Shown here piece after piece: positions 26,106 through 52,207 of a stretch of 64,000 bases of DNA. The translations under genes and the position numbers were made by a program. The DNA is taken from contig CAZMFO010000002.1 in NCBI GenBank assembly GCA_964565615.1, positions 16,824 to 80,823 on the forward strand. Reading direction: 5' to 3'. The notes under the pieces were generated by a model. That model was not told the origin of the DNA. It searched no databases and saw nothing but the letters and a program-made list of their open reading frames with translations. Position 1 is the stretch's first letter. The number at the start of each line of letters is the position of its first letter. Source of the DNA: an uncultured Candidatus Saccharibacteria bacterium. GTDB taxonomy: Bacteria > Patescibacteriota > Saccharimonadia > Saccharimonadales > JAGQNJ01.

Positions 26106-27041
26106 CTATGTATTATTTGAATGGAATTGTTTATGAACCTCTTTTAGGTGTTTGTCGGTAACATGAGTATAAATCTGAGTTGTAGCAATGTTGCTATGTC
26201 CTAGCATTGCTTGGACACTTCGTAGATCTGCTCCATTACGAAGAAGGTCTGTTGCAAAACTGTGCCGTAGAGTATGAGGAGAGACCTGTTTGGTAATTCC
26301 TGCTAGTCCAGCATAACGAGAAACCATTCTCTGAACACTACGCGACGTTAGGCGCAAGTAGTTGCCAGACCTATCTGCTGGCATTTTTTTGTTACTGTGC
26401 CCGATAAAAAGGGCAGGTATAGTGTCATTTCTTTGTTCGATGTATTGTTCTATCCAAGATGAAGCTTCTGGGCTAATAAAAATCGGTCGGTTTTTTTGAC
26501 CTTTGCCTCTAACCGTAAACTCTCTAGTTTTTAGATTAATATGTTCTTTATTAAGGTTAGTTAATTCGGACACACGAAGCCCACTACTAAACAGTAACTC
26601 TAGTATCGCACGGTCTCTTAACCCCTGTAGAGCAGATGTATTTGGCTGAGCAAATAATTTATGCAACTCTTCGATAGATAAGAACGAAACTTCGTTTCGG
26701 CTATTTTTAGCCAGTTCAATTTTATCAGCCGAAAGAGTTTGTATATCGCGTTTAGTGCACCACTTTAAAAAGCTCCTTAAAGCGATTAAATGATAGTTAA
26801 CAGTGCTTTTCTTTAGCTCGTCATTGACATTAGTGCCAAGTCTATTTAGCCATAGTCTCCATTTACGGATTAATTCTGGTGATATATCCTTAACCGCAAT
26901 GTCTCCAGCATAATCTTCTATTCTAGTTAAGTAATGATCGTAATTGTCTATTGTTTTTAATGATCGACCTTGCTCAATTTCTAGATATTCTAAAAATTCT
27001 TGTTTTGCATCGCTAAACTTCATACTTATATTGTACGACAT
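26106..27041 (-). CDS. tyrosine recombinase XerC/XerD family
   Basis: RHSFATDLLRNGADLRSVQAMLGHSNIATTQIYTHV C-terminal catalytic signature. Confidence 0.85.
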   Translation of the reverse strand: MSYNISMKFSDAKQEFLEYLEIEQGRSLKTIDNYDHYLTRIEDYAGDIAVKDISPELIRKWRLWLNRLGTNVNDELKKSTVNYHLIALRSFLKWCTKRDIQTLSADKIELAKNSRNEVSFLSIEELHKLFAQPNTSALQGLRDRAILELLFSSGLRVSELTNLNKEHINLKTREFTVRGKGQKNRPIFISPEASSWIEQYIEQRNDTIPALFIGHSNKKMPADRSGNYLRLTSRSVQRMVSRYAGLAGITKQVSPHTLRHSFATDLLRNGADLRSVQAMLGHSNIATTQIYTHVTDKHLKEVHKQFHSNNT

Positions 27042-27713: not shown

Positions 27714-27789
27714 GGCCCGGTAGTTCAACGGATAGAACACCACCGTCCTAAGGTGGGTGTTGGGGGTTCGAGTCCCTCCCGGGTCACCA
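27714..27789 (+). tRNA. tRNA-Arg (anticodon CCU), CCA encoded
   Basis: Hand-folded cloverleaf: acceptor ggcccgg/ccgggtc, anticodon stem ccacc/ggtgg, loop gtCCTaa, T-loop ttcgagt. Confidence 0.85.
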
Positions 27790-30379: not shown

Positions 30380-30455
30380 GCCACCTTAGCTCAGTTGGTA
30401 GAGCGACGCATTCGTAACGCGTAGGTCAGCAGTTCAATCCTGCTAGGTGGCTCCA
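30380..30455 (+). tRNA. tRNA-Thr (anticodon CGU), CCA encoded; integration target
   Basis: Acceptor gccacct/aggtggc, loop ttCGTaa, T-arm agcag-ttcaatc-ctgct. The 3' GCTCCA is the left junction of the element. Confidence 0.85.
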
Positions 30456-31986
30456 GAATACGACTTTTTTCAAGATTTGACGGCGTTGCCGTCATTTTTT
30501 GTAGGGTTTGGCGAAAGCCAAACCAAATGTTTTCTTGGGGGGAATGAGATTTTGGATCGCTGGAAGCGACCGCATTTTTGTTTTTGAGTTTGAGGTTCAA
30601 CCCGAAAATTTCCAGCAATAGCGACTTTTTGGCGTTTTGGTCGGCGGAATGAGCGATTTTACAGATAGAAACTGCTCTTTCTAGCCAATTACTCAGCGGT
30701 TCAACCCACTCTAAAGTGCCTAAATGTAAATCGCTCATTTGCTCCTCTATGGTTTTCTTTTGGCTCATAATCTCGGCTTTCTTTTGCGTGTATATTTCAC
30801 GCTCCAAAACGCCGTCAAGAAAACCGTCCAAAAGTCTTTGTAATTTCTCGGACAAATGTGTGAGTTCCCTCCGCATGCCGTTAATTTTACCGTCTATTTG
30901 CTCTTTGTCTGCCAGTTCGTCCGCAGTAGCCCACACACGCATTTTGTCCGCATATTCTTTGGGCAAAGCGAAGCCAGCCAACAGGTCAGATAACTGCTGA
31001 TCTAAAAGTTCAGAACGAACGGCAGGTTCAATACACTTCACAGTTTTGTTTTTACGGCTACACCTATAATAGACATAATGGTGCGTGTTGCCGTTCTTCT
31101 GCCGTTTCGTTTTGTTTTCAGCAGTTATCATCATTCCGCAACTGCAACGCAGTAGTCCGCAGTAGGCTTGTGGCTCTATCAAGCCTTTTGTTGGGTGGCT
31201 TCGCTGTTCTATGACGGCTTGCACTTTATCAAACAGTTTCTTGCTAATAATTGGCGTATGTTTACCCTCGTGTACCTCGCCGCCATATATGAAATGACCG
31301 TAATAAAACGGATTTTTCAAGATATATTTAACCTTGTCTTTGCTATACGGCTTACCACCGCTAGTCTTAACGCCACGCTCAAACAAATAATCTGATATAT
31401 CTTGAAAAGTGCTTTGCCCCAAAGAATATAGAACAAAAATCGCTTCAACTAATTCGGCTTGGCGTTTGTCTATATGCACCGTTTTACTTTTGGTGTTGTT
31501 ATAGTAGCCAAATGGGGCAATTCCGGGGAACTCGCCACGCCGAATTTTTTGGCGAAGCCCACGCTTGGTATTCTCGCTCAAATTATCTACATAGTATTTG
31601 CTCTGACCAAAAGCAATGTTCAGCATAAACTTACCCTGACTGGTATTCTCAAACCAAAAAGTCTGAAACTTTAAGTCAGCTAGGTGGTTTTGGTCAAGCA
31701 AATAGATAATTTGTCCACCGTCAATGCTGTTTCTTGCTAGTCTATCGGGGTGCCACGCTAGTATTGCGTTGGCTTCGCCATTTTGTATGCGTTTTAACAC
31801 TTCGGCGAACTTCGGGCGACCTGGTGTTTTAGCAGATTTCTTTTCAATAACGGTATCTATCACGACTAAGCCGTTATCTTTAGCGTACTTCCGAAGTTCT
31901 GCCAGCTGTGCCTCAATAGACAAGACTTGCTTGTCCTCAACGTCTGTACTCTTACGAGCATACAAAATGTAGCGATTTTTGTTCAT
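30391..31986 (-). CDS. large serine recombinase (integrase)
   Basis: Resolvase-type catalytic N-terminus (YILYARKSTDVEDKQVLSIEAQ, HPDRLARN), recombinase domain, Cys-rich zinc ribbon (CGLLRCSCG...YYRCSRK) and a coiled-coil region. The ORF runs through the attachment core into the tRNA-Thr sequence. Confidence 0.9.
   Translation of the reverse strand: MNKNRYILYARKSTDVEDKQVLSIEAQLAELRKYAKDNGLVVIDTVIEKKSAKTPGRPKFAEVLKRIQNGEANAILAWHPDRLARNSIDGGQIIYLLDQNHLADLKFQTFWFENTSQGKFMLNIAFGQSKYYVDNLSENTKRGLRQKIRRGEFPGIAPFGYYNNTKSKTVHIDKRQAELVEAIFVLYSLGQSTFQDISDYLFERGVKTSGGKPYSKDKVKYILKNPFYYGHFIYGGEVHEGKHTPIISKKLFDKVQAVIEQRSHPTKGLIEPQAYCGLLRCSCGMMITAENKTKRQKNGNTHHYVYYRCSRKNKTVKCIEPAVRSELLDQQLSDLLAGFALPKEYADKMRVWATADELADKEQIDGKINGMRRELTHLSEKLQRLLDGFLDGVLEREIYTQKKAEIMSQKKTIEEQMSDLHLGTLEWVEPLSNWLERAVSICKIAHSADQNAKKSLLLEIFGLNLKLKNKNAVASSDPKSHSPQENIWFGFRQTLQKMTATPSNLEKSRILEPPSRIELLTYALRMRRSTN
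30451..30586 (+). repeat. IR arm A (136 bp), left-terminal copy
   Basis: Reverse complement of 32132-32267 with one mismatch by eye (30556 vs 32162). That mismatch is synonymous (GAT/GAC Asp) in the recombinase frame. Confidence 0.9.
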
Positions 31987-32131
31987 AGCAATTACCCCCA
32001 TAATTTTAATGACCGCCCCAGTTGCGTACAATCAAGAGAAATCTTGTTTGTCTGGGACGGTCATTAAAAAAGACCTCTCTGTTAGATTGTACGCACTACC
32101 ATTTTACCAAATAAAAACCGCCTATGGCGGG

Positions 32132-32517
32132 CAAAAACAAAAATGCGGTCGCTTCCAGCGACCCAAAATCTCATTCCCCCCAAGAAAACATTTGGTTTGG
32201 CTTTCGCCAAACCCTACAAAAAATGACGGCAACGCCGTCAAATCTTGAAAAAAGTCGTATTCTGGAGCATTTCTACCGAAACGCTAGAACCTATTTTAGC
32301 AAAAACCAACAGATAAGAACAGATGTGAAGTGGAAAAAAGAGGACAACCTGCGAAACCAGCCCCGCCGTTAGCTTGCGAAAGTCGCAAGCCCGCCCCGCC
32401 AGCCCTGGATTTTGATTGTTTTTGGATTTCCCCCCGCCGAATTTCTTTTTTGTAGTTGAGAAAATCCAGGTCTGTCGGGTCGGCTGCCGAAAACGGCAGA
32501 AACGGCGTGGCTTTGGG
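32132..32517 (+). repeat. internal 386-bp unit (A' + core + B), an inverted copy of the joined element ends
   Basis: 32132-32267 is the reverse complement of 30451-30586; 32268-32517 is the reverse complement of 35372-35621 (250/250 by eye). Confidence 0.9.
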
Positions 32518-32584
32518 GCAAAACGCCTGTGCTTGGTACAGATATAGGTTCCTGTTATACTAAAGAAAAGATTTTGGAGGTTTT

Positions 32585-34762
32585 ATGTCTTTTGAAGTTG
32601 TTAAGCAATATGAAACACCGCCCAATGAGTTTAACCCGCTCGCTGGACACCCTGACCCAGAGCAATTGACACTAGATAGTCTACGTCAAGGTACTTTGCT
32701 TGCAGGGCGGGAAAAGCCGCTCACATGGGAGCTTGATGAAATCACTTCGGAAGGTGCTTTGCACCGTTACCGCGCACAAGCGGAGATTGAAGCACTTATC
32801 AACCTTGCAGAACGCGGGCCAGTCGAAGTTGAAATTGATGAGACACAAAAGGAGACCTTACGCTCACTCTACAGCTCAGAAGTGTTTGACCCAGAGGTTG
32901 TGATACGGCTTGACCACCTCGGCTACAAGGGGCGTCCGCCACTTGAGCATGACGTTAAAGCAGTTGAAGTATACCTCGCAGAGTTGCTTGACGAAGCTGA
33001 TTTGGGACATCTCAAAGAGTGGGTTCACTTCGGTATGACATCGGAAGATACCAACAACCTTGCCTATAATTACATGCTGCGCGACGCGGCAAACAAAGTT
33101 GTTATACCATCAGTGGCGCGAGTTGCCGACAGATTGGCACATCTTGCGGCTATCTATGCTGACACGCCGACACTTGGCACGACCCACGCGCAAAAGGCTT
33201 CGCCAACGACTGTCGGCAAACAGTTTGGCTACCTACTCTCAAACATCACTCAAGTTGTCGGCGAGCTGGACGAACAGCGACTGACGGGCAAATTCAGCGG
33301 CGCAGTCGGCAATCACAATCCAATGTCGGTACTTTTTCCAGATTTTGACTATGACGCATATGCAAGGGATTTTGTTGAGTCACAAGGCTTTGATTATTCG
33401 CCGGTTGAAAATCAGCGCAATAATCATTTAGCAGTAACCGATTTCCTCGATACTGTGCAGCGTCTGGCGGTTGTCGGCAAAGATGGAACCGATAATGTCT
33501 GGCTGCAAATATTGAACGGCACACTCAAGCAAAAACTGGTTGCGGGTGAAAAAGGTTCATCTACCATGTCGCACAAAATCAATCCGTGGCGACTTGAGAA
33601 CAGCGAATCATTGTTTGAACAGGCTATCGCCTTATCAGGGCGAGTAAGCGAGGGGCTTGTGGCTAGTCGCCACGAACGCGATTTATCAGATCACGATTGG
33701 CAGCGTGCCTATGGCGATATTTTAGGTAGACTGGTCGCTGGCTATAACTATTTTGCAATCCAACTTGACCGCTTGGCTGTCGATGAAGCGCAAACCGGAA
33801 AAACACTCGCCGAATCAGCAGAAGTATTAAGCGAACTAATACAAACAGCAGGTCGGGTATCGGGCGACCCCGAAGCATACGATAAGGTTGTTACACTAAC
33901 CCAGGGCAAGAAGCTTGATTATGCGGGTATTCAGGAAGTCATTAAAGCAGCTTTGCCAGACGGTGAACTACGCGACAGAGTGCTTGCTACAACCCCCGAA
34001 AGTTATACCGGTATTGCAGGCGATAAGGCGCGCGAGGCGGTGTTGGGCTGGCATGCAATCAAAGGTGTAGTTTTACGCGGCGTGCTTGATGAGTCAACCA
34101 GTGTAGACGCAGTGCTGTTTGATTTTGACAATACTTTGCACTTTGGCGACAAAGACGAATTGTTCGCGCGCTTGTCGAGTATTGCTTCGCAGCTTGGCTC
34201 TGGCTATACAGAGGAAGAAATCCGCACTTTCGGAAATCGCAGCGATTATCTCGAAATGAAAAAACTCATGGTCGAAGAACATAATCGCCGCTTCCCGAAT
34301 AGCCGCATTTCTGAGGCTGATTTTCAGGAGGCTAACGATTCGGTAACAGGCAGTTTTGACTACTTGCTCACACCAGCGCCGAGAGCAGCAGAGATTTTGG
34401 AACAGCTACGCGATTCTGGCAAAAAAACGGGGCTGGTAACAACGCGCGGCAATAATTCGCGCGATAGATTGCTACAACATCATGGCCTTGCCGATTCATT
34501 TGATGTTATTGTTGGTCGCGGCGATGCCGCGCAGCGCAAACCGCACCCGCAGCCAATCGCCCTCGCGCTTGCAAAGCTAGGCGTCGATAACTACAGGCGC
34601 ACCCTGTATGTTGGCGATTTGCAGATTGACGACGTGGGAGCGGGTAATGCGCTCGGCATGAAAACAGCACTTATAAATGACACGCCGCTTGACCCTCAGG
34701 GTCCTGTGCCGACTTACCATTGGGCATCATTAGAACCGCTAGCGCGTAGGTATACGAGGTAA
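32585..34762 (+). CDS. adenylosuccinate lyase-like (fumarate-lyase superfamily) / HAD phosphatase fusion protein
   Basis: PurB-like motifs HFGMTSEDTNN, TLGTTHAQKASPTTVGKQ, GKFSGAVGNHN and the signature GSSTMSHKINPWRLENSE. C-terminal HAD motifs VLFDFDNTL (DxDxT), LVTTRG, KPHPQP, YVGDLQIDDVGAGNA. RBS ggagg upstream. Confidence 0.75.
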   Translation: MSFEVVKQYETPPNEFNPLAGHPDPEQLTLDSLRQGTLLAGREKPLTWELDEITSEGALHRYRAQAEIEALINLAERGPVEVEIDETQKETLRSLYSSEVFDPEVVIRLDHLGYKGRPPLEHDVKAVEVYLAELLDEADLGHLKEWVHFGMTSEDTNNLAYNYMLRDAANKVVIPSVARVADRLAHLAAIYADTPTLGTTHAQKASPTTVGKQFGYLLSNITQVVGELDEQRLTGKFSGAVGNHNPMSVLFPDFDYDAYARDFVESQGFDYSPVENQRNNHLAVTDFLDTVQRLAVVGKDGTDNVWLQILNGTLKQKLVAGEKGSSTMSHKINPWRLENSESLFEQAIALSGRVSEGLVASRHERDLSDHDWQRAYGDILGRLVAGYNYFAIQLDRLAVDEAQTGKTLAESAEVLSELIQTAGRVSGDPEAYDKVVTLTQGKKLDYAGIQEVIKAALPDGELRDRVLATTPESYTGIAGDKAREAVLGWHAIKGVVLRGVLDESTSVDAVLFDFDNTLHFGDKDELFARLSSIASQLGSGYTEEEIRTFGNRSDYLEMKKLMVEEHNRRFPNSRISEADFQEANDSVTGSFDYLLTPAPRAAEILEQLRDSGKKTGLVTTRGNNSRDRLLQHHGLADSFDVIVGRGDAAQRKPHPQPIALALAKLGVDNYRRTLYVGDLQIDDVGAGNALGMKTALINDTPLDPQGPVPTYHWASLEPLARRYTR

Positions 34763-35331
34763 TGGCCGAGAAAATACCAATTTCCGGCGGGCCACACACT
34801 GGCAAAACAACGCTACTTGAAGCGTTAAGAGTGCAGTTTCCAGACGCTCATTTCGTTCCAGAACCTGCCACGAATGTAATTACAAGAGAGCTTGAAACAG
34901 AGCGAGCAAACCCAAGCCATAAACCGCGTGTACCCTGGGTAGACTATCGACAGTTCGGCCCACTCGTTGCCGAAGAATCAGAAGTGCTTGAATCAGATAT
35001 ACCAGAGGCAGCCACAATCGCTTTTCAGGACAGAAGTCTTATCGACACAATCGCATATAGCCGCCTTAATAACTTTGATGAGTTTGTGCCAGAAGTAAGC
35101 CGTAGAGTTGCAATTGCTCGGTACAGCTTTGCGCTAATTTGCCAGCCAGTCGGCGAGTATACCACTACAACAGTCAGGCGAGAAACGCAGGACGAAGCCC
35201 TACAAACACACCTAGAGATTGAGCGTGCTTATAATGAGTCTGGCATTGAAGTCATATCAATCCCTGCAATCAGTACCAATGAGCGCGTTGCGCTCATTAC
35301 AGAAGTCCTGCAATCTCGTAGCTTGGTTTGA
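34762..35331 (+). CDS. small P-loop NTPase (AAA_28/NadR-like, COG3911-type predicted ATPase or kinase)
   Basis: Walker A ISGGPHTGKTTLLEAL, FVPEPAT, FQDRSLIDTIAY; start overlaps the upstream stop (TAATG). Confidence 0.6.
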   Translation: MAEKIPISGGPHTGKTTLLEALRVQFPDAHFVPEPATNVITRELETERANPSHKPRVPWVDYRQFGPLVAEESEVLESDIPEAATIAFQDRSLIDTIAYSRLNNFDEFVPEVSRRVAIARYSFALICQPVGEYTTTTVRRETQDEALQTHLEIERAYNESGIEVISIPAISTNERVALITEVLQSRSLV

Positions 35332-35371
35332 TTTGTATATGTGTCGCTTGCGACACATGGCGGCTCTGCCG

Positions 35372-35626
35372 CCCAAAGCCACGCCGTTTCTGCCGTTTTC
35401 GGCAGCCGACCCGACAGACCTGGATTTTCTCAACTACAAAAAAGAAATTCGGCGGGGGGAAATCCAAAAACAATCAAAATCCAGGGCTGGCGGGGCGGGC
35501 TTGCGACTTTCGCAAGCTAACGGCGGGGCTGGTTTCGCAGGTTGTCCTCTTTTTTCCACTTCACATCTGTTCTTATCTGTTGGTTTTTGCTAAAATAGGT
35601 TCTAGCGTTTCGGTAGAAATGCTCCA
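35372..35626 (+). repeat. IR arm B' (250 bp + CTCCA core), right-terminal copy
   Basis: Perfect reverse complement of 32268-32517; ends ...cggtagaaatgCTCCA, 3 nt before tRNA-Gly. Confidence 0.9.
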
Positions 35627-35629
35627 TTT

Positions 35630-35703
35630 GCGGGATTAGTATAGTGATAGTACGCTTGCTTCCCAAGCAAGAGGTACGAGTTTGATTCTCGTATCCCGCA
35701 CCA
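35630..35703 (+). tRNA. tRNA-Gly (anticodon CCC), CCA encoded
   Basis: Acceptor gcgggat/atcccgc, anticodon stem cttgc/gcaag, loop ttCCCaa, T-arm acgag-tttgatt-ctcgt. Confidence 0.85.
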
Positions 35704-47508: not shown

Positions 47509-47585
47509 CGGGGTGTGGCGCAGTTGGCTAGCGCGTACGGCTGGGGGCCGTGAGGTCGCAGGTTCAAGTCCTGTCACCCCGACCA
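47509..47585 (+). tRNA. tRNA-Pro (anticodon GGG), CCA encoded; left boundary of the second island
   Basis: Acceptor cggggtg/caccccg, anticodon stem tacgg/ccgtg, loop ctGGGgg, T-arm gcagg-ttcaagt-cctgt. Confidence 0.85.
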
Positions 47586-47708
47586 AAAATGGACTAATTT
47601 CAGAATTGCGGCGCAAATGTGCCGTTTTTTCTTTGGCGGCACGGAGTGCCGACCAAAGAAAAAAGAGTGCTTTCGCACTCAATGTCCGAAAAGAGTCCTG
47701 AAATGGTC

Positions 47709-47928
47709 TCCCTCTACAACGAGGCTAGAGCCTATTTTATGGCAAAAAGCTGATTGCGAGAATGGTCGCTTCGCCCCGACCGCCTGTTCCAGCTAAGGCT
47801 GGAACGCCCCCGCCAGAAAGTCGCCCTTTAACTATTTAGATTACCCCGCCAATTCCATATTTTTAATGGAAAAGGCCGGATTTTCTGTCGGTTCGCCTGC
47901 GCTAAAGCGCAGAGACGGACGGGGCTTC
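47709..47928 (-). repeat. B-type repeat arm (copy C), imperfect inverted partner of 49604-49823
   Basis: The reverse complement aligns by eye with 49604-49823, with scattered substitutions and a few small indels; both end in cctcgttgYAtagggaGACCA. Confidence 0.8.
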
Positions 47929-47946
47929 TTTTGTTATTATTAAAGT

Positions 47947-48519
47947 ATGGAAATAAAGGACGAAAGAAATAGAAAAATTCTAACTAATCCTGAATCATCT
48001 TGTCCGCCTGAAATCCTTAACCAACAGGTGGCTATTGAAGTTAAGTTTGTTGGGTTTGATGGTTCACCAGCAAGCGGAATTATTGAAGTTAATGAGTTGG
48101 TTGCTGATGAGGTTAAGGCATTTTTTGAACAAGCACTACGACTTAACTTCCCAATAGAAAAAGTTGCTCCTGCTAGTGAAAGCCCTTATGAATGGAATGA
48201 TGACGTACTTATGGAAGCGAATGTTTCTTCTGGCTTCAATTATCGCTCAATCGCAGGGACTGACACGCCTTCACTACACGGCAGGGGTTTTGCTTTTGAT
48301 ATAAATCCACGACAGAACCCATATATTCGTTATAAAGACGGGCAAGAAATTGTTGCTCCTACTAATTCAATATGGCAACCAGACCAGCCAGGGACTTTAT
48401 CAGCAGAACACCCTTTAGTGCAATTTATGGTTGAGCGTGGCTGGGAGTGGGGCGGAAGCTGGACGGCTGAAAGTGGCAGAATTGACTACCAACACTTTCA
48501 AAAGAATATAGGCGATTAA
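47947..48519 (+). CDS. peptidase M15 family (VanY/D-Ala-D-Ala carboxypeptidase or L-Ala-D-Glu peptidase-like)
   Basis: SLHGRGFAFDINP (H..G.A.D zinc-ligand motif) and GWEWGGSW...DYQHF (C-terminal His ligand). Confidence 0.65.
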   Translation: MEIKDERNRKILTNPESSCPPEILNQQVAIEVKFVGFDGSPASGIIEVNELVADEVKAFFEQALRLNFPIEKVAPASESPYEWNDDVLMEANVSSGFNYRSIAGTDTPSLHGRGFAFDINPRQNPYIRYKDGQEIVAPTNSIWQPDQPGTLSAEHPLVQFMVERGWEWGGSWTAESGRIDYQHFQKNIGD

Positions 48520-49539
48520 CTACTGCTTTTGGTAAGAGTGTGGCATTACAAGATATGCGTCCCGTGCGTCAGGCATTTTGCCGTGTGCGCCAGCGTGGTT
48601 GCTAGCGTGTCCTAACTCTAGGTCAGCGGGGTCAATCATATTTTCTTCGCTAAGCTGTTCAGGCTTAATACCGCTACGCATAATTTGATAGCGAACCATT
48701 TCACGATACTGCGGTTCCCATACATCATCAGGTCTGATTTCATCGCCAGGCTTCCAATCAGGATTGGAGGTATTTACCAGTAAGCCTTGGTCATACCAAC
48801 CAGGAAAGAGGTCTTCTGGGCCTTTGTCTTTGAAGGTGTGCTGGAAGTTTTCAGCCTTAATGGCAGCAATCAAATGGACCTTTACGCTATCAACATCACC
48901 TCCGTAATGTTCTAACGCTTCGTGCATAAAGTATTCAAAACAACCAGCAGGTTCGCCGTCTATTTCAAAGCCAAGTTTTGATTCACCTTGCAGGTTTGGT
49001 CGGGTTAAATGAACAAAACCTTGCACATCTTCACCATCATGGTCTTTGAACTCAATAGCTGCAAAACCACAATCTGCAAGTCGTGCGCCAAGTACTACTT
49101 TTTCGGACGCTTTAGCAAAAAACGCATTGTAGCCAGGTAATTCACGAATACCAACGGAGTTAGTCTTTACGTTATCACCGTAACTTTCTATCTGGTCATA
49201 AAAGCCTACACCGTCAGCCGTAACACCTACCATAAGTAAATCTTCGGCTTTGATATTCAAACGTTCTGTAATGTCCTTTATGTTTAAGTCTGAACAGAGC
49301 TTGTCGTTATTGCTAAAGCCTTCGGGTGCTTGGCAACCGTTTCCTGCACAGGCAGTACCGCCTAGGGCGCAAGTTCGGCGAAGAATATCACCTACGAGCA
49401 ACTCACGTTTTGGCACTTCACCAGGCGCAACTGGTTCACGCATACGAGTAATGTATGCGAGCGTATCTTCACCAACAGCAAAACTGTCAGCGTAAGGCTG
49501 GAACGAGGGTACATTTGCTTCGGCTACTAATTCTGACAT
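48520..49539 (-). CDS. hypothetical protein; weak YfiH/DUF152-like ADC...H pattern
   Basis: 339-aa ORF. LADCGFAAIEF...GFVHLTRPN resembles the ADC...HAGW region of YfiH-type enzymes; the rest is unrecognised. Confidence 0.3.
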   Translation of the reverse strand: MSELVAEANVPSFQPYADSFAVGEDTLAYITRMREPVAPGEVPKRELLVGDILRRTCALGGTACAGNGCQAPEGFSNNDKLCSDLNIKDITERLNIKAEDLLMVGVTADGVGFYDQIESYGDNVKTNSVGIRELPGYNAFFAKASEKVVLGARLADCGFAAIEFKDHDGEDVQGFVHLTRPNLQGESKLGFEIDGEPAGCFEYFMHEALEHYGGDVDSVKVHLIAAIKAENFQHTFKDKGPEDLFPGWYDQGLLVNTSNPDWKPGDEIRPDDVWEPQYREMVRYQIMRSGIKPEQLSEENMIDPADLELGHASNHAGAHGKMPDARDAYLVMPHSYQKQ

Positions 49540-49603
49540 ATCTGTTACATATTACCACTATAAGCGGTTTTTGTCAAACTCGTGTATGATCTGTAATCTA
49601 GCG

Positions 49604-49828
49604 AAGCCCCGTCCGCCTCTGCCATTTATGGCAAGCGAACCGCCAGAAAATCCAGCCTTTTCCATTAAAATTAAGGAATTGGCGGGGTAATCTAAATAGT
49701 TAAAGGGCGACTTTCTGGCGGGGCGCGTTCCGGCCTTAGCTGGAACAGGTGGTCGGGTCTGAACGGCCATTTTCGCAATCAGCTTTTCGTCATAAAATAG
49801 ATTCTAGCCTCGTTGCATAGGGAGACCA
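49604..49828 (+). repeat. B-type repeat arm (copy C') ending in the GACCA core
   Basis: See 47709-47928. Followed by a degenerate A-type arm (49829 to about 49950) that resembles 30456-30500. Confidence 0.8.
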
Positions 49829-50014
49829 TTCGAGATTTTATGGGTTTTGAAGTACATTTTTCGTGGCTTCCTCATCTGATAATCCACAATTTATTCGCAA
49901 CTACCCATAGGGGTAGTTTCTCACGAACGAGTAACTACACAGCAATTGCTGGCCTTAGGTAGGTTAGGGTTGATAGAATAGTCCATAGGTAGGTTCCTTT
50001 CTGTAATTATCTTT

Positions 50015-50031
50015 AGGAGGAACGTCCTCCT
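50015..50031. repeat. third copy of the AGGAGGA-NNN-TCCTCCT palindrome
   Basis: aggaggaACGtcctcct immediately 3' of the minus-strand operon that ends at 50035. Confidence 0.7.
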
Positions 50032-50034
50032 TTT

Positions 50035-50745
50035 TCATATCAATCTGTTCAATAAACCACCATAATTGTAAGGGGTAAATCCATCGTCTATAAAAATGGG
50101 ATAGGCCGGACTTTTCACCTGCATTTGCTTGGCAAGTTTTTGGTCAATCGGCTGGAACGCTTCAAGGCCTTTACTTGACAGTCCAAACTTTTTCTTGTCC
50201 TCAAGTGTCATACGATACACAAAACGGTATTTCTCCAGTTTTGGTGTAGCGCTAAACTTTTCAAGTTTAGCCAGAAGTGCAATACGGTCATACCAGAGTT
50301 CTGGATTATTCAGCCGACTATCTAAGCTAATTTCAACCGATAAGCAGTTATCTGCGTATTTATTGGTGCAGTCGTAGTCTGCAACAACCATCTTGTTTAG
50401 TCCAAGTATCCACGCAATGTCATAAAGGTTTCTATTAGCAGTATCGCCAACAAATCCACAGTCGTTGTCTGGGCAGTATGTATTGTGAAAGTCCAACACT
50501 ACATCGTACTTTTTTGTCTTTTTAAGTATTTGAGCAGCTCGCTTTACCTCATACTCTTGGCTTTTAATGTTGCCAGGAAACGAACGATTTAGATCATGCT
50601 TCACAAAGCGCCAATTACCAGCAATAGCCTGTTCGTTGGCAAACAATGCGTCTACGCTGTCTAAGGGGTTAGCACGAAGTAGCTTAACAACTTCTAGTCC
50701 AAGTGGTTCATTGCCGTGCATACCACCTATTACTAGTACTCTCAT
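50035..50745 (-). CDS. succinylglutamate desuccinylase/aspartoacylase (AstE/AspA, M14-like) family zinc hydrolase
   Basis: MRVLVIGGMHGNEPLG and HDLNRSFPG motifs. Confidence 0.65.
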   Translation of the reverse strand: MRVLVIGGMHGNEPLGLEVVKLLRANPLDSVDALFANEQAIAGNWRFVKHDLNRSFPGNIKSQEYEVKRAAQILKKTKKYDVVLDFHNTYCPDNDCGFVGDTANRNLYDIAWILGLNKMVVADYDCTNKYADNCLSVEISLDSRLNNPELWYDRIALLAKLEKFSATPKLEKYRFVYRMTLEDKKKFGLSSKGLEAFQPIDQKLAKQMQVKSPAYPIFIDDGFTPYNYGGLLNRLI

Positions 50746-51446
50746 CTCTTGTACTCCTGTTCTATGTTTATTATTATGAAGTCTCGTCTGTCTGGTACGA
50801 TGCTCGCCGTCTCTACGCTACCAACCATTGAGCGGTCTCGTTGTCCTGCAAAAATTCGTACATTGCATGGGAAATCCCGCCGAGCCGCGCCAACCATTTG
50901 CGGGCTAATCGTTCTATAGGCAACAGTTTCTGCATCGAGCTGCATAGCGAGCCCTTTTACAAATAAACCGAAGTTTTGCAAATTGCCACTTTGTTTCAAA
51001 GCCTTATTTGCAAAAACTTCATCAAGCCACATTATTTCATTGTTACCCAAAGTTGTATTAAGCCAATCAGACATCTCTGGCACATCAGAGTATTTTTCCT
51101 TTGCAATGATAGAGGGGGTTGCTCGCCAAGCCACTGCTGCCATAGTCAAGTATTCTCCGTTTTGCTCGGCGTACCACGCAGTTGGACGCGAAGCCGCAAC
51201 TGTATCAAAGCGTCCTATCAGTTCGTCCGTTTCATAGGCGGGACGAGATGGACACATTTCACACATTGTACATATTGAGCCGATTGCTACGGCTGATAAT
51301 CCACCTACGCAGCGTTGTCGCTCATCGGCACATTTACTTACTTCGTACCATGGCTCGTCAGCAAAAGCTGCTTGATAAGCTGGTACAATCTCGCCATATA
51401 AAGGTTTTACTTTGTCTGGCGTATAAAAATTCTTTTGTTCACTCAT
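50742..51446 (-). CDS. hypothetical protein (Cys-rich CTMCEMC segment)
   Basis: 234-aa ORF translationally coupled (ATGA) to the downstream gene; no confident domain. Confidence 0.35.
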   Translation of the reverse strand: MSEQKNFYTPDKVKPLYGEIVPAYQAAFADEPWYEVSKCADERQRCVGGLSAVAIGSICTMCEMCPSRPAYETDELIGRFDTVAASRPTAWYAEQNGEYLTMAAVAWRATPSIIAKEKYSDVPEMSDWLNTTLGNNEIMWLDEVFANKALKQSGNLQNFGLFVKGLAMQLDAETVAYRTISPQMVGAARRDFPCNVRIFAGQRDRSMVGSVETASIVPDRRDFIIINIEQEYKR

Positions 51447-51534
51447 TATCTAATTCCTTTAACAATTTACTTAGTAGATAATCTAAAAACGCCAGCCTCA
51501 AGTGCTGGCGTTTACTTTTTACAAAAGTAATTAT

Positions 51535-51867
51535 TTACACAGCACGGGCTGGCGGAATATGTGAGTGGTGTGTATCTACAACTTTTAGTGCTGCCTGATA
51601 GCCGTTACAACCGTTTTGCAACCAATTGCTAATCCGAGCAACAGTACGGCTACTTAGCTTAGTTTTAGCAACAATGTCAGTATATTTTTTACCAGCTTGC
51701 AACATTTTGGCGGCTTCAAACCGTGCGCTGATTTCGGCGATTTCTTTCTTGGTCATAACATCACGCAAGAAGTCCTGCATTGTTTGCTGGTTATCAATAG
51801 CGGTCAACGCCCCAGCGAGCTGCTGTGCGGTTTCAGATTGCCAAATTGTAGTCTTATCTGCAGACAT
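51535..51867 (-). CDS. TrpR-related YerC/YecD-family DNA-binding protein
   Basis: FLRDVMTKKEIAEISARFEAAKMLQAGKKYTDIVAKTKLSSRTVARISNWLQNG matches the YerC/YecD TrpR-like pattern. Confidence 0.7.
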   Translation of the reverse strand: MSADKTTIWQSETAQQLAGALTAIDNQQTMQDFLRDVMTKKEIAEISARFEAAKMLQAGKKYTDIVAKTKLSSRTVARISNWLQNGCNGYQAALKVVDTHHSHIPPARAV

Positions 51868-51940
51868 AGTATTAGTTTACCAAAGTAAAGCATACTTGTC
51901 AATAATGATTTTATATTTCAATATAATCTTTCTGTATTAC

Positions 51941-52207
51941 CGACCGCCAGGCCGTTTCTGCCCTTTTGGGCAGGCGACCCGACTGACTTGATTTTTTCTC
52001 AACTGAAAAAAGAAATTTGGTTGGGGTAAAAATCAAGAAATTGTAAAAATCAGGGCTGGCGGAGCGGGTCAGCCTTTTCACCCCACAAAATTCGCTGCGC
52101 TGGATTATTGAGGGGACCCCGATTTGGCTGGAAACAGTAGGGCTTGGTTTCTCGTTTTCAGCTATTTGCCATAAAATAGGTTCTAGTCTCGTTGTAGAGG
52201 CAAATCA
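51941..52207 (+). repeat. B-type repeat arm (copy D), diverged
   Basis: Shares gccgtttctgcc-hairpin, cgacccgac, ttctcaact.aaaaaagaaatt, cagggctggcgg.gcggg and ccataaaataggttctag.ctcgttgtagagg with 35372-35621 and 49604-49823. Confidence 0.7.

Follow-up and report, generated by a model that had tools for sequence, protein, structure and literature searches.

A small integrative element with a large serine recombinase and a second, inverted attP copy at a tRNA-Thr gene end in a Saccharibacteria genome

An insert of 5,171 bp separates the CCA end of tRNA-Thr(CGT) from tRNA-Gly(CCC) in the window, the 64,000-nucleotide stretch of DNA analysed in this paper. We conclude with good confidence that it represents, in intact form, a large Patescibacteria family of small integrative elements that carry cargo, a family apparently undescribed as far as literature searches reach; full-text searches returned no description of the element's architecture. 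We read these elements as integrative elements of a large serine recombinase (LSR) with a new architecture. Two inverted copies of attP are present, one of which is split into attL (site S1) and attR (site S3), while the other is intact inside the element (site S2).

The 3' end of tRNA-Thr(CGT) (30380-30455, + strand; ARAGORN and Rfam) reads ...GGTGGCTCCA, and its 3' part forms the B half-site of attB. Core copy 1, GCTCCA (30450-30455, + strand), marks S1, where the tRNA meets the X arm and the left junction reads ggtggCTCCAgaatacgac. At the other end, core copy 3 (35621-35626) closes the outer Y arm (35372-35626, + strand), the element side of S3, and the right junction reads cggtagaaatgCTCCAtttgcggg. 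The B' side of attB follows (35627-35703, + strand), consisting of a 3-nt spacer and then tRNA-Gly(CCC) (35630-35703, + strand; ARAGORN). The 6-nt core is common to S1, S2 and S3. The sequence-only reading had placed an element exactly at this CCA end, parting the tRNA-Thr/tRNA-Gly pair, and had predicted an empty site in other genomes; the placement is borne out, and the empty site was found in L089 (SRR25436094) and L090 (SRR36479851), where flanks 100% identical to those of the window overlap by 6 nt on the core and are joined, matching to the base, as ...GGTGGCTCCATTTGCGGG... The attL, attR, attB and attP relations proposed for a large serine integrase hold as well, with GCTCCA shared by the empty attB, attL, attR and the attP copy. 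Moreover, the predicted attP junction is physically present in inverted orientation inside the element (gtcgtattcTGGAGcatttctaccg, around 32254-32278). Scans of metagenomes with two patterns, one representing the attP junction and the other the P half-site together with the core, gave no match. The GC contrast that had been described is real but was overstated in size (55-63% against 30-37%), the measured values being 0.43 in the recombinase module and 0.495 in the cargo against 0.39-0.40 in the flanks. As a plain attL-cargo-attR insert, the element had been described correctly as far as that went; the intact inverted attP copy (32132-32517) was missed, as were two pairs of long inverted repeats, the inversions associated with them, and the passage of the recombinase ORF over the crossover site. 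These are the unusual features, and the family conserves them. These results support regarding that interpretation as incomplete, not wrong.

The single recombinase gene (30391-31986, - strand) encodes an LSR of 531 aa according to domain, structure and family matches, and Resolvase, Recombinase and Zn_ribbon_recom domains confirm the earlier identification. The N-terminal catalytic domain matches PF00239 (E 9.6e-25), and the C-terminal part matches PF07508 (Recombinase) and PF13408 (Zn_ribbon_recom). In an alignment of 20 family members, R11, S13, D81, R82, L83 and R85 are invariant; the catalytic residues used for comparison are those listed for Bxb1 (PMC12884075). Among solved structures, the SPbeta LSR SprA is nearest (E 1.9e-13, aligned over residues 53-437), and the best NCBIfam match is CcrB, at 142.7 bits against a cut-off of 900. 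Judged from its sequence, with catalytic, Recombinase and zinc-ribbon domains and a shared att core, the recombinase is an intact integrase-type LSR. Its leader is unique DNA (31987-32131, - strand) and holds a pair of 18-bp palindromes (I8; 32004-32021 and 32052-32069), and a further inward-facing terminator-like hairpin lies nearby (32118-32134). An exact look-up of the 531-aa protein returned no record. IMG/VR contained no close relative of the protein, and a search there with the family profile gave only five distant or partial matches; a phage or plasmid origin was rejected on these searches. No candidate for a recombination directionality factor (RDF) was found in the conserved part, and the recombinase module of relatives has no conserved small gene. 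Cargo is unrelated between relatives; a host-encoded or unrecognised factor is possible.

Beyond the X arm and the core, both of which it reads through, the recombinase ORF ends within the antisense strand of tRNA-Thr. Because the reading frame runs over the crossover core, the C-terminus of the enzyme depends on the junction. The X arm encodes the last ~45 aa on the minus strand, and over 32 loci its stop codons number 3 in the recombinase frame versus 34 and 27 in the other frames. Among 120 recombinase protein clusters, a tail read from antisense tRNA is seen in ~82 and a tail encoded by Y' in ~11, the latter with the pattern ...F(Y)..ART(Y/H)F.. followed by a stop.

Site S2 (32132-32517, - strand) was recognised as the overlap of the inverted repeats I1 and I2 on the core, and consists of the X' arm (32132-32262), the core TGGAGC (32263-32268) and the Y' arm (32269-32517). 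The outer X arm (30456-30586; inverted repeat I2) is the P' side of attP. The X/X' repeats (137 nt, 99% identical) bracket the recombinase module, the Y'/Y repeats (255 nt, 100% identical) bracket the cargo module, and the two pairs overlap on the 6-nt core; this bracketing of the modules follows from the two inverted attP copies. Repeats of such length and identity rule out chance as the source of the site structure. Joining the outer ends of the element reproduces the internal site without a difference, as is characteristic of a single element with a duplicated attP. On the + strand, the X arm holds three terminator-like hairpins that point into the element just after tRNA-Thr. The Y arms carry a conserved structured domain (32357-32510, + strand, in Y', model R1, reading inward; 35379-35532, - strand, in the outer Y). 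Over the whole element, Rfam gave no gathering-level matches apart from the tRNAs, and the Y-arm domain obtained only chance-level matches to miRNA hairpins (E about 0.8); assignment to a known RNA was rejected, as the domain has no Rfam family.

Fifty-nine related loci of Patescibacteria were compared. The X repeat pair is present in 47, and a Y pair abuts the X pair in 18, lying on the recombinase 5' side in 17 and on the 3' side in 1; wherever the overlap of the inner arms was read in twin-repeat loci, it amounts to 5-10 nt. In 27 loci a tRNA 3' end lies within 12 nt of an outer arm end, in 26 of them on the 3' side of the recombinase and in 1 on its 5' side. The target tRNAs include Thr, Lys, Leu, Gln, Met, Arg, Ala, Gly and Ser, and arm lengths range from 100 to 435 nt. 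Variants by which elements differ from one another are common to both arms of a given element, and the cargo changes sharply at the inner arm ends, a pattern which indicates that the arms evolve in concert. In a few cases, arm identity was linked with recombinase integrity. An ordinary serine-integrase island, attL-cargo-attR, whose internal inverted copy is an incidental one-off duplication, would account correctly for all attB, attL and attR relations; this is nevertheless extremely unlikely, as the twin-repeat layout recurs with recombinases that are 50-96% identical and at many tRNAs, with arms that change together.

Long repeats also raise the question of whether the layout is an assembly chimera of a metagenome-assembled genome, a concern that had been voiced for the junctions. 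Repeats longer than k break short-read assemblies and can mis-join them; many related contigs end in arms, and L038 looks mis-assembled. However, S2, S3 and the cargo are found again, with 99.9-100% agreement, in independent assemblies from other samples, the twin-repeat layout lies within long contigs (for example L046, 623 kb, and L016, 272 kb), an X pair brackets the recombinase module in the chromosome record of L056, and the junctions fall exactly at the CCA end, with an empty site that agrees. The chance that a chimera explains the layout is next to nil, and the concern about the junctions can be set aside.

Two relics of the family lie in the same window. Relic A (47586-49830, + strand) is a member without recombinase at tRNA-Pro(GGG); it retains remnants of X/X', with the recombinase module reduced to about 115 nt, a core TGGT and an intact cargo module between the arms Y' (47702-47928) and Y (49603-49830, ending ACCA), which are 89.5% alike. 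Downstream, relic B (51946-52200, + strand) is a lone Y-type right arm with a degenerate core, and its position beside relic A is a tandem accretion. Outside the window, L056 has the recombinase module alone between two tRNA 3' ends. Relic A and L056 would fit two neighbouring transposon-like units that are independent and move separately, one a recombinase "IS" and the other a non-autonomous cargo unit, each module having bounding inverted repeats of its own. This arrangement is given very little probability. The twin-repeat modules are adjacent, with inner arms overlapping on one shared core, and since this core has the opposite orientation to both outer cores, target-site duplications are absent. 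The identity of the joined outer ends with the internal site also argues against separate units, as does the nature of serine recombinases, whose usual substrates are short dimer sites and not terminal repeats. The layout of L056 can also be explained by recombination of S2 with a second tRNA.

Judged from assembled contigs, the recombinase module and the cargo module each occur in both orientations, the comparisons being made between samples or lineages on consensus assemblies in which repeats longer than k break or may mis-join. L001 and L006 share a 100% identical flank and have the cargo in opposite orientation; in L008 and L010, the AAA_28 end adjoins Y-core-X. The recombinase module is flipped relative to the tRNA in L047 and L094, and in L093 and L095 the recombinase 3' end is joined to Y' and then to cargo. 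L094 indicates that at least some of the recombinase genes with a Y'-encoded tail are integrated, flipped copies. Flank F of L001 and L006 was considered as a possible B' side of tRNA-Thr(GGT), for which only a tRNA-Trp match, to L033, was obtained. SNP markers could not tell site-specific from homologous inversion, since the arms are too alike. Among the assemblies, no circular form was seen; in-place flips yield every circle junction too, so short contigs have no power to prove a circle.

The cargo genes agree with the two noted earlier, and domain and family annotation confirms that replication, conjugation and phage genes are lacking. A promoter-like site in unique DNA (TTGGTA-17-TATACT with TG; 32533-32561, + strand) precedes an adenylosuccinate lyase/HAD phosphatase fusion of 725 aa (32585-34762, + strand) and an AAA_28 P-loop protein of 189 aa resembling the NadR kinase domain (34762-35331, + strand). 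Apart from adenylosuccinate lyase/HAD proteins, family cargos include additional ThrRS and AspRS-like copies, kinases, NUDIX and HAD enzymes, and a PEP-utilising enzyme. The cargo and arms of the window's element recur at 99.9-100% identity in no fewer than 9 further samples and beside a second flank. Because the cargo module is also found in this second chromosomal context, the element, to judge by these assemblies, is mobile or was so until recently.

A reading to be weighed against mobility is a DNA-inversion switch, resident and domesticated, such as a shufflon or Hin-like phase variation, in which S1-S3 would serve to flip segments and alter expression. Hin/Gin-type invertases are small serine recombinases of about 190 aa with a C-terminal HTH, which act on 26-bp sites with a Fis enhancer at fixed expression-switching loci, and the hin gene lies inside its invertible segment. 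Serine invertase systems (the H segment of Hin, Gin, Cin, PinQ) likewise join a serine recombinase gene to a segment that lies between inverted sites and occurs in two orientations. The occurrence of both modules in both orientations and the location of the recombinase gene within an invertible segment would agree with such a switch. It is nonetheless very unlikely: there are empty sites with identical flanks, the same cargo stands in different chromosomal contexts, the target tRNAs are many and the cargos unrelated, the enzyme is a large and not a small serine recombinase, the arms measure 137 and 255 nt, and the whole unit is an insertion. Additionally, no outside promoter is switched, because the cargo has an internal promoter-like site and terminators to either side insulate the recombinase.

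The half-sites suggest how the target is recognised. Counted back from the final A of CCA, the T-loop motif AGTTC (30431-30435) of tRNA-Thr begins at 25 nt. In the Y arm, the P half-site motif AAAATAGGTTCTAGC contains GGTTC (35598-35602) at 29 nt from the final A of its CCA, so that its distance from the core exceeds that of the tRNA motif by exactly 4 bp. GGT(T/G)C is found at -29 in 17 of 17 relatives and in the window's element, as compared with -25 in tRNA T-loops. Mean information content is 1.01 bits for Y, 0.71 for B, 0.54 for X and 0.23 for B'; the right half-sites are thus little conserved (X) or show no conservation (B'). The B half-site would consist of the tRNA T-loop, acceptor end and CCA, the P half-site would be the Y end of the element with its T-loop-like GGTTC displaced 4 bp outward, and B', downstream of the tRNA, shows no recognisable conservation. 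The dyad-symmetry analysis for crossover placement was dominated by a CTAG palindrome in the P motif, and the crossover is placed to the shared core as a whole rather than to a 2-nt position in it. The conserved AAAATAGGTTC was considered as an outward promoter and rejected, because T, C or G can stand at its first position and no promoter was predicted there by the scan; it is more likely a protein-binding motif.

The LSR is proposed to integrate the element at the final 5-7 nt of a tRNA gene, which in tRNA-Thr read GCTCCA. Integration and excision at the core by the recombinase are considered very likely. Without an RDF, canonical large serine integrases are known to carry out attP x attB recombination only; excision, and any inversion driven by the recombinase, are therefore assumptions, as canonical enzymes need an RDF and no candidate was found. 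Excision by S1 x S3 would give a circle in which two inverted attP copies part two unique segments. For the module inversions, host homologous recombination over the perfect arms is favoured, at somewhat better than even odds, and it would also keep the arms identical. The action of the recombinase on S1 x S2 is a serious alternative, with a little under an even chance. By either route, a flip of the recombinase module would exchange the C-terminal tail of the enzyme, because the crossover core lies within the ORF. A flip of the cargo would direct its transcripts into the downstream tRNA or into the terminators before the recombinase gene. Through their inward-facing terminators, the X arms insulate the recombinase gene and end the transcript of the interrupted tRNA.

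It is also conceivable, though doubtful, that the inverted spare attP is a built-in mobility switch that needs no RDF. Integration would replace the element-encoded C-terminal tail by residues from the antisense tRNA, and S1/S2 inversion would return the recombinase 3' end to the Y' arm, giving a "circle-type" enzyme without excision of the element. Activity or directionality would then distinguish the two isoforms, as with IntP and IntX of Mx8. In a related reading, a single-stranded copy taken up by natural competence may fold, its outer ends rebuilding a duplex attP on S2.

Compared to known systems, the element shares its domain set and catalytic residues with the large serine integrases of phages and islands (SPbeta SprA, phiC31, Bxb1, A118/LI), which also use short att sites with a small shared core. 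Their motif likewise lies further out in attP than in attB, by 4 bp here and reportedly by about 5 bp for the A118/LI integrase. Unlike them, the element targets a tRNA gene 3' end without RDF or phage genes, keeps a second inverted attP, has an ORF that crosses the crossover site, and shows an unconserved B'. SCCmec Ccr, TnpX of Tn4451 and TndX of Tn5397 are LSRs that excise and insert small non-replicating cargo elements and are not known to need a separate RDF. Ccr gave the best NCBIfam match, yet far below the equivalog cut-off; the targets of these enzymes (rlmH, or GA dinucleotides) differ from a tRNA, and their elements have no internal inverted attP. The yeast 2-micron plasmid has FLP/FRT in two inverted repeats, FLP being a tyrosine recombinase, and replicates, using the flip for copy amplification. 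The excised circle of the element would share its geometry, with two inverted target-bearing repeats, two flippable segments and the recombinase gene within one unique segment; genomes with plastid-type inverted repeats can be likened to it as well. Unlike the plasmid, the element is seen integrated and no replication function was found in it.

Islands of the Islander type have a tyrosine integrase and displace a tRNA fragment of tens of nt, which the island restores, and serine integrases aimed at tRNA genes were stated in the Islander paper as not known. The element is of another type, with a serine recombinase and only 5-10 nt duplicated. The passages available on tycheposons of Prochlorococcus describe small cargo elements in genomic islands, beside tRNA genes of streamlined genomes, carrying accessory metabolic genes, as here, and causing rearrangements; 910 of 937 have tyrosine recombinases and many have replication genes. 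The element differs in its serine recombinase, its lack of replication genes and its Patescibacteria-like host, and those passages contain no description of a twin inverted-repeat or internal-attP design. For Mx8 IntP/IntX and SSV-type integrases, an integrase ORF lies over attP and integration creates a new gene 3' end, which in Mx8 alters enzyme behaviour (PMC6070905; PMC4383910). An ORF crossing attP is common to these integrases and to the element's recombinase. The Mx8 and SSV-type integrases are viral tyrosine recombinases and are not known to have an inverted spare attP that could restore the original 3' end by inversion.

Patescibacteria have tiny genomes with few recognised plasmids or conjugative elements, and their route of gene exchange is an open question. 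The element family looks like a widespread vehicle for accessory genes in this group, aimed at the universally conserved end of tRNA genes by a clade of serine integrases whose direction to tRNA genes is testable. The apparent T-loop mimic would explain how attP and attB are discriminated by a 4-bp offset. Should the type of a site be set by its left half-site alone, these enzymes could serve as compact RDF-free tools with tRNA ends as landing sites. Also open to testing is an element that retains an intact attP after integration, inverts its own recombinase gene and varies the C-terminus of the enzyme with the state of the junction. Finally, chromosomal inversions between tRNA genes are expected from the retained attP and seem to be present in some related genomes.

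The element is inserted precisely at the end of a tRNA gene. It lies between tRNA-Thr(CGT) (30380-30455) and tRNA-Gly(CCC) (35630-35703), both located on the plus strand by ARAGORN. The left junction reads ...ggtgGCTCCA/gaatacgac... and the right junction ...cggtagaaatGCTCCA/tttgcggg..., with the 6-nt core GCTCCA common to both and an insert of 5,171 bp. These tRNA positions and junctions agree with the sequence-only reading, in which the element was placed at the CCA end of tRNA-Thr, splitting a Thr/Gly pair. By exact-protein look-ups with the genes flanking the element, contigs from two other samples, L089 (SRR25436094) and L090 (SRR36479851), were retrieved; they match the window's flanks at 100% identity and lack the element precisely. 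As the junction in these contigs, GGTGGCTCCATTTGCGGG, overlaps each window flank by the 6-nt core, the empty attB predicted from the window was correct to the base, and the suggested search for it in related sequences found it in both samples. The flanks have a GC content of 0.39-0.40, the recombinase module one of 0.43 and the cargo one of 0.495; the trend noted earlier stands, while the hand-counted contrast exceeded the real one.

The 531-aa ORF of the element contains Resolvase, Recombinase and Zn_ribbon_recom domains, the SPbeta large serine recombinase SprA is its closest relative of known structure, and its catalytic residues are invariant throughout the family. The enzyme belongs to the large serine recombinases; its top NCBIfam matches are the Ccr and XisF recombinases, with scores far under the cut-offs. 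The cargo consists of a 725-aa adenylosuccinate lyase-HAD phosphatase fusion and a 189-aa AAA_28 protein, and exact identical copies of both were found in at least 9 other samples. The bacterial host genes of the window include RNase P class A, Tgt, ThrRS and an RRM protein. Just 5' of the recombinase ribosome-binding site, at 32004-32069, an 18-bp inverted repeat (TTTTAATGACCGCCCCAG / CTGGGACGGTCATTAAAA) with the inner palindrome gcgtacaatc/gattgtacgc could be an operator or a leader hairpin, and a comparable palindrome is carried by the related loci L094 and L095. Outside the element, a XerC/D-like tyrosine recombinase gene (26106-27041; Phage_integrase and SAM-like N-terminal domains) is located ~670 nt upstream of tRNA-Arg(CCT) at 27714.

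A repeat search revealed two pairs of inverted repeats. The X/X' pair (30450-30586 with 32132-32268; 137 nt, 99% identical) brackets the recombinase module, and the Y'/Y pair (32263-32517 with 35372-35626; 255 nt, 100% identical) brackets the cargo module. The inner arms of both pairs overlap at 32263-32268 (TGGAGC), so that fusing the element's right end to its left end gives exactly the reverse complement of 32132-32517. This stretch is an intact inverted copy of the element's own attP, and the attP junction that had been predicted exists here, inside the element. The order is tRNA-Thr, core, X, recombinase (minus strand), X', core', Y', cargo (plus strand), Y, core and tRNA-Gly, a three-site geometry of attL (S1), inverted internal attP (S2) and attR (S3). 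In the plain attL-cargo-attR picture of the sequence-only reading, the att relations were right; the inverted internal attP and both repeat pairs were overlooked. Several ideas can be offered for why S2 might be kept, namely an isoform switch, a single-strand fold-back, homology handles for cargo exchange, or a decoy site. In a full-text literature search, neither this element family nor an internal inverted attP was found described, and this architecture of serine-recombinase cargo elements is apparently undescribed. The closest concept to this integrative cargo island is that of the tycheposons, which are mostly driven by tyrosine recombinases. Serine integrases that target tRNA genes have been stated as not known (PMC4383910).

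The design is conserved family-wide rather than peculiar to this element. In a genome scan, the recombinase matched 77 loci (43-96% identity), nearly all in Patescibacteria and chiefly in Saccharibacteria; architecture counts were taken over 59 near-full recombinase loci. An X pair surrounds the recombinase gene at 47 of these, and where it is missing the recombinase mostly lies no more than a few hundred nt from the end of its contig. A Y pair abuts the X pair at 18/59 loci (17 at the recombinase 5' side, 1 at the 3' side), measuring 69-435 nt with 99-100% identity in 16 of the 18, and at loci with both pairs the inner arms overlap by 5-10 nt. The 3' end of a tRNA is found within 12 nt of the outer arm end on the recombinase 3' side at 26/59 loci; at 1/59 the tRNA is at the 5' side instead. 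Among the tRNAs targeted are those for Thr, Lys, Leu, Gln, Met, Arg, Ala and Gly, and in every case the core is formed by the last nucleotides of the target tRNA (GCTCCA, CTCCA, AGCCA, CACCA). The far side of attB, B', is often the tRNA's own terminator hairpin, moved to the far side of the element. Twin repeats also occur within contigs as long as 623 kb (L046) and 272 kb (L016), evidence against an assembly artefact.

The cargo modules of relatives are 1-7 kb long and mutually unrelated. They encode a PfkB kinase with an MBL-fold protein; SDR, GNAT and serine hydrolase; DUF218, NUDIX and HAD; RidA with DUF1697; and many proteins without a Pfam match. Extra copies of housekeeping enzymes (a second ThrRS; two AspRS-like genes) or a PPDK_N/PEP-utilizers enzyme were found at L033 6031-7869, L047 12693-14925 and L044 1136-3625. 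The PPDK_N/PEP-utilizers domain pair is also found in rifampin phosphotransferases, and the cargos of these three loci may provide antibiotic resistance to epibionts of organisms that produce antibiotics. No phage, conjugation or replication genes were found among the relatives' cargo modules.

The recombinase ORF spans the junction. Over 32 loci, the X arms contain 3 stop codons in the recombinase frame versus 34 and 27 in the other two frames. Usable sequence was available at 16 twin-repeat loci; at 13 of these, as in the window, the ORF does not end until it is within the antisense tRNA or the host flank, its stop lying 3-86 codons past the core. A flip of the recombinase module therefore swaps the C-terminal tail of the enzyme. 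Joining of the 3' end to Y' is predicted to give a tail ...(R/H)F(Y/F)..ART(Y/H)F... that stops 11-44 codons beyond the core, and exactly this tail is present in the existing recombinase proteins P0002, P0005 and P0013. Among the 120 closest protein clusters, ~82 have the tRNA-antisense tail and ~11 the Y' tail. Between the P half-site and the structured domain (window 32269-32360 and 35530-35620), the window's element and its closest relatives, L012, L013, L016, L033, L092 and L093, have a further conserved, A-rich stretch of ~60 nt (AACAGATAAGAACAGATGTGAAGTGGAAAAAAGAGGACAAC), which is not found in other clades and extends the Y'-encoded tail to 34-39 aa. The integrases of Mx8 and SSV are tyrosine recombinases, and the element shares with them a recombinase ORF crossing the att site, here that of a serine enzyme. 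In Mx8 and SSV the att site lies within the integrase gene and the C-terminus changes upon integration, which in Mx8 alters enzyme behaviour (PMC6070905; PMC4383910). No report of an att site within a serine-integrase gene with such a C-terminus change was found in the literature.

The X arm bears three terminator-like hairpins that point into the recombinase module from both sides, those on the left coming directly after tRNA-Thr, and a fourth precedes the recombinase leader. The X hairpin stems covary between lineages even as the encoded amino acids differ, which indicates selection on the nucleic acid. The Y arms are homologous across elements over their full 245-270 nt; this homology ends at most ~20 nt from the repeat end, and the cargo beyond is unrelated. 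Variants that distinguish one element from another are common to both of its Y arms, which indicates concerted evolution. Each Y arm contains a ~155-nt domain, a hairpin plus a long stem around the invariant loop GATTTCCCCCGCCGAATTTCTTTTTT, with compensatory double changes at 18 of 26 predicted pairs (11 arms). A covariance model matches this domain in the Y arms of Saccharibacteria-type elements, inward wherever both arms are present; elsewhere in 830 kb it matched only relic and partial arms, and comparison with Rfam gave no family match. In 16 of 17 elements whose recombinase is intact, the Y arms are 99-100% identical; identity is 90% in L083, whose recombinase is a pseudogene, and only 89.5% in a recombinase-less relic of the window. 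These few cases are suggestive of a tie between arm identity and recombinase integrity.

This relic (relic A, 47586-49830) is a family member at tRNA-Pro(GGG) (47509-47585), with back-to-back X/X' remnants (~115 nt), the core TGGT, and the arms Y' (47702-47928) and Y (49603-49830). Its cargo is a VanY-like M15 peptidase and a 338-aa protein without a Pfam match. The sequence directly after its core, TTCGAGATTTTATGGG..., resembles the start of an X arm; farther 3' are an AstE/AspA-like gene, a gene without a Pfam match, a small HTH-like ORF and a lone Y-type arm (relic B, 51946-52200) with a degenerate core. The region 49831-52200 looks like tandem accretion of an older element.

As judged from contig sequences, compared in every case between samples or lineages, both modules occur in both orientations. 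The flank (F) that adjoins the lyase end of the cargo in L001 adjoins the AAA_28 end, at 100% identity and inverted, in L006. In L008 and L010 the AAA_28 end is joined to Y-core-X; in the window the lyase end adjoins S2. For the recombinase, the tRNA abuts the 5'-side arm in L047 and L094, with the cargo module or the Y' arm beyond the 3' end, and in L093 and L095 the 3' end leads across X' and the core to Y', with cargo beyond it. In L038 (5467-15738), an inverted repeat of 4,352 nt places a cargo-module copy on each side of the recombinase gene; this is either a real duplicated form or the result of orientation isomers being mis-assembled in a co-assembly. A tRNA-Leu/Cys/Lys cluster differs in order and orientation among L041, L046, L047, L049, L056 and L059.

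In the mechanism proposed, the recombinase would integrate a circle by attP x attB. Such a circle would have to hold two inverted attP copies, the same geometry as that of the yeast 2-micron plasmid; either copy could be used, the unused one would stay as S2, and the resulting repeats would permit inversion. Flips also yield every junction expected from such a circle. The chance that the inversions are made by host homologous recombination is placed a little above even, since this process has to be invoked anyway to account for arm identity over as much as 435 nt, a serine-recombinase site is far shorter than these arms, and canonical large serine integrases are not known to pair attP with attL or attR. 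Inversion driven by the recombinase itself, through S1 x S2, is a real possibility at somewhat under an even chance, kept plausible by the unconserved B', the tandem accretion and L056 (CP060229.1, 8420-11579). There, the recombinase module is bordered by tRNA 3' ends, that of tRNA-Tyr (forward) on one side and that of tRNA-Leu (reverse) on the other, with no cargo module, a layout that would be the expected product of S2 recombining with a second tRNA. An IS3-like transposase pair is inserted upstream of the L056 recombinase gene. If the cargo is flipped, its transcript would run into the X' terminators. In the window orientation, no plus-strand terminator-like site lies between the promoter-like site of the cargo and tRNA-Gly, so cargo read-through could replace the transcription lost by the Thr-Gly split.

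Large serine integrases discriminate attP from attB through the zinc-ribbon-domain motif, which lies ~5 bp further out in attP (A118/LI integrase structures). The Y arm bears AAAATAGGTTCTAGC in 17/17 twin-repeat relatives and in the window's element; in all of them the start of its GGT(T/G)C precedes the last A of CCA by exactly 29 nt, and the T-loop GGTTC begins 25 nt before that A in every tRNA. The constant 4-bp offset fits the attP-outward rule, and the pattern suggests that the family is able to target any tRNA by reading the universal T-loop. The mean information content is 1.01 bits for Y, 0.71 for the tRNA side, 0.54 for X and 0.23 for B', where no position is as high as 1 bit; recognition would thus appear to be dominated by the left half-site. 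The sequence following S3 in L016 and L001/L006 is an X-arm remnant of another element type, suggesting that the attL of an older element serves as the insertion site of a new one. In L016 (6543-6572) the host side opens with the foreign-type remnant GGATACGACTTTT..., and in L001 (1040-1108) and L006 (2070-2140) it comprises a GGAATTGTCGCCC..GGGCG hairpin, a T-run and then the P-motif remnant AAAATAGGTTCT. Dominance of the left half-site would be consistent with these remnants, the tandem relics at tRNA-Pro and the L056 module. If the left half-site dominates, attL would act like attB and attR like attP, which would make possible both S1 x S2 inversion and excision free of a recombination directionality factor (RDF).
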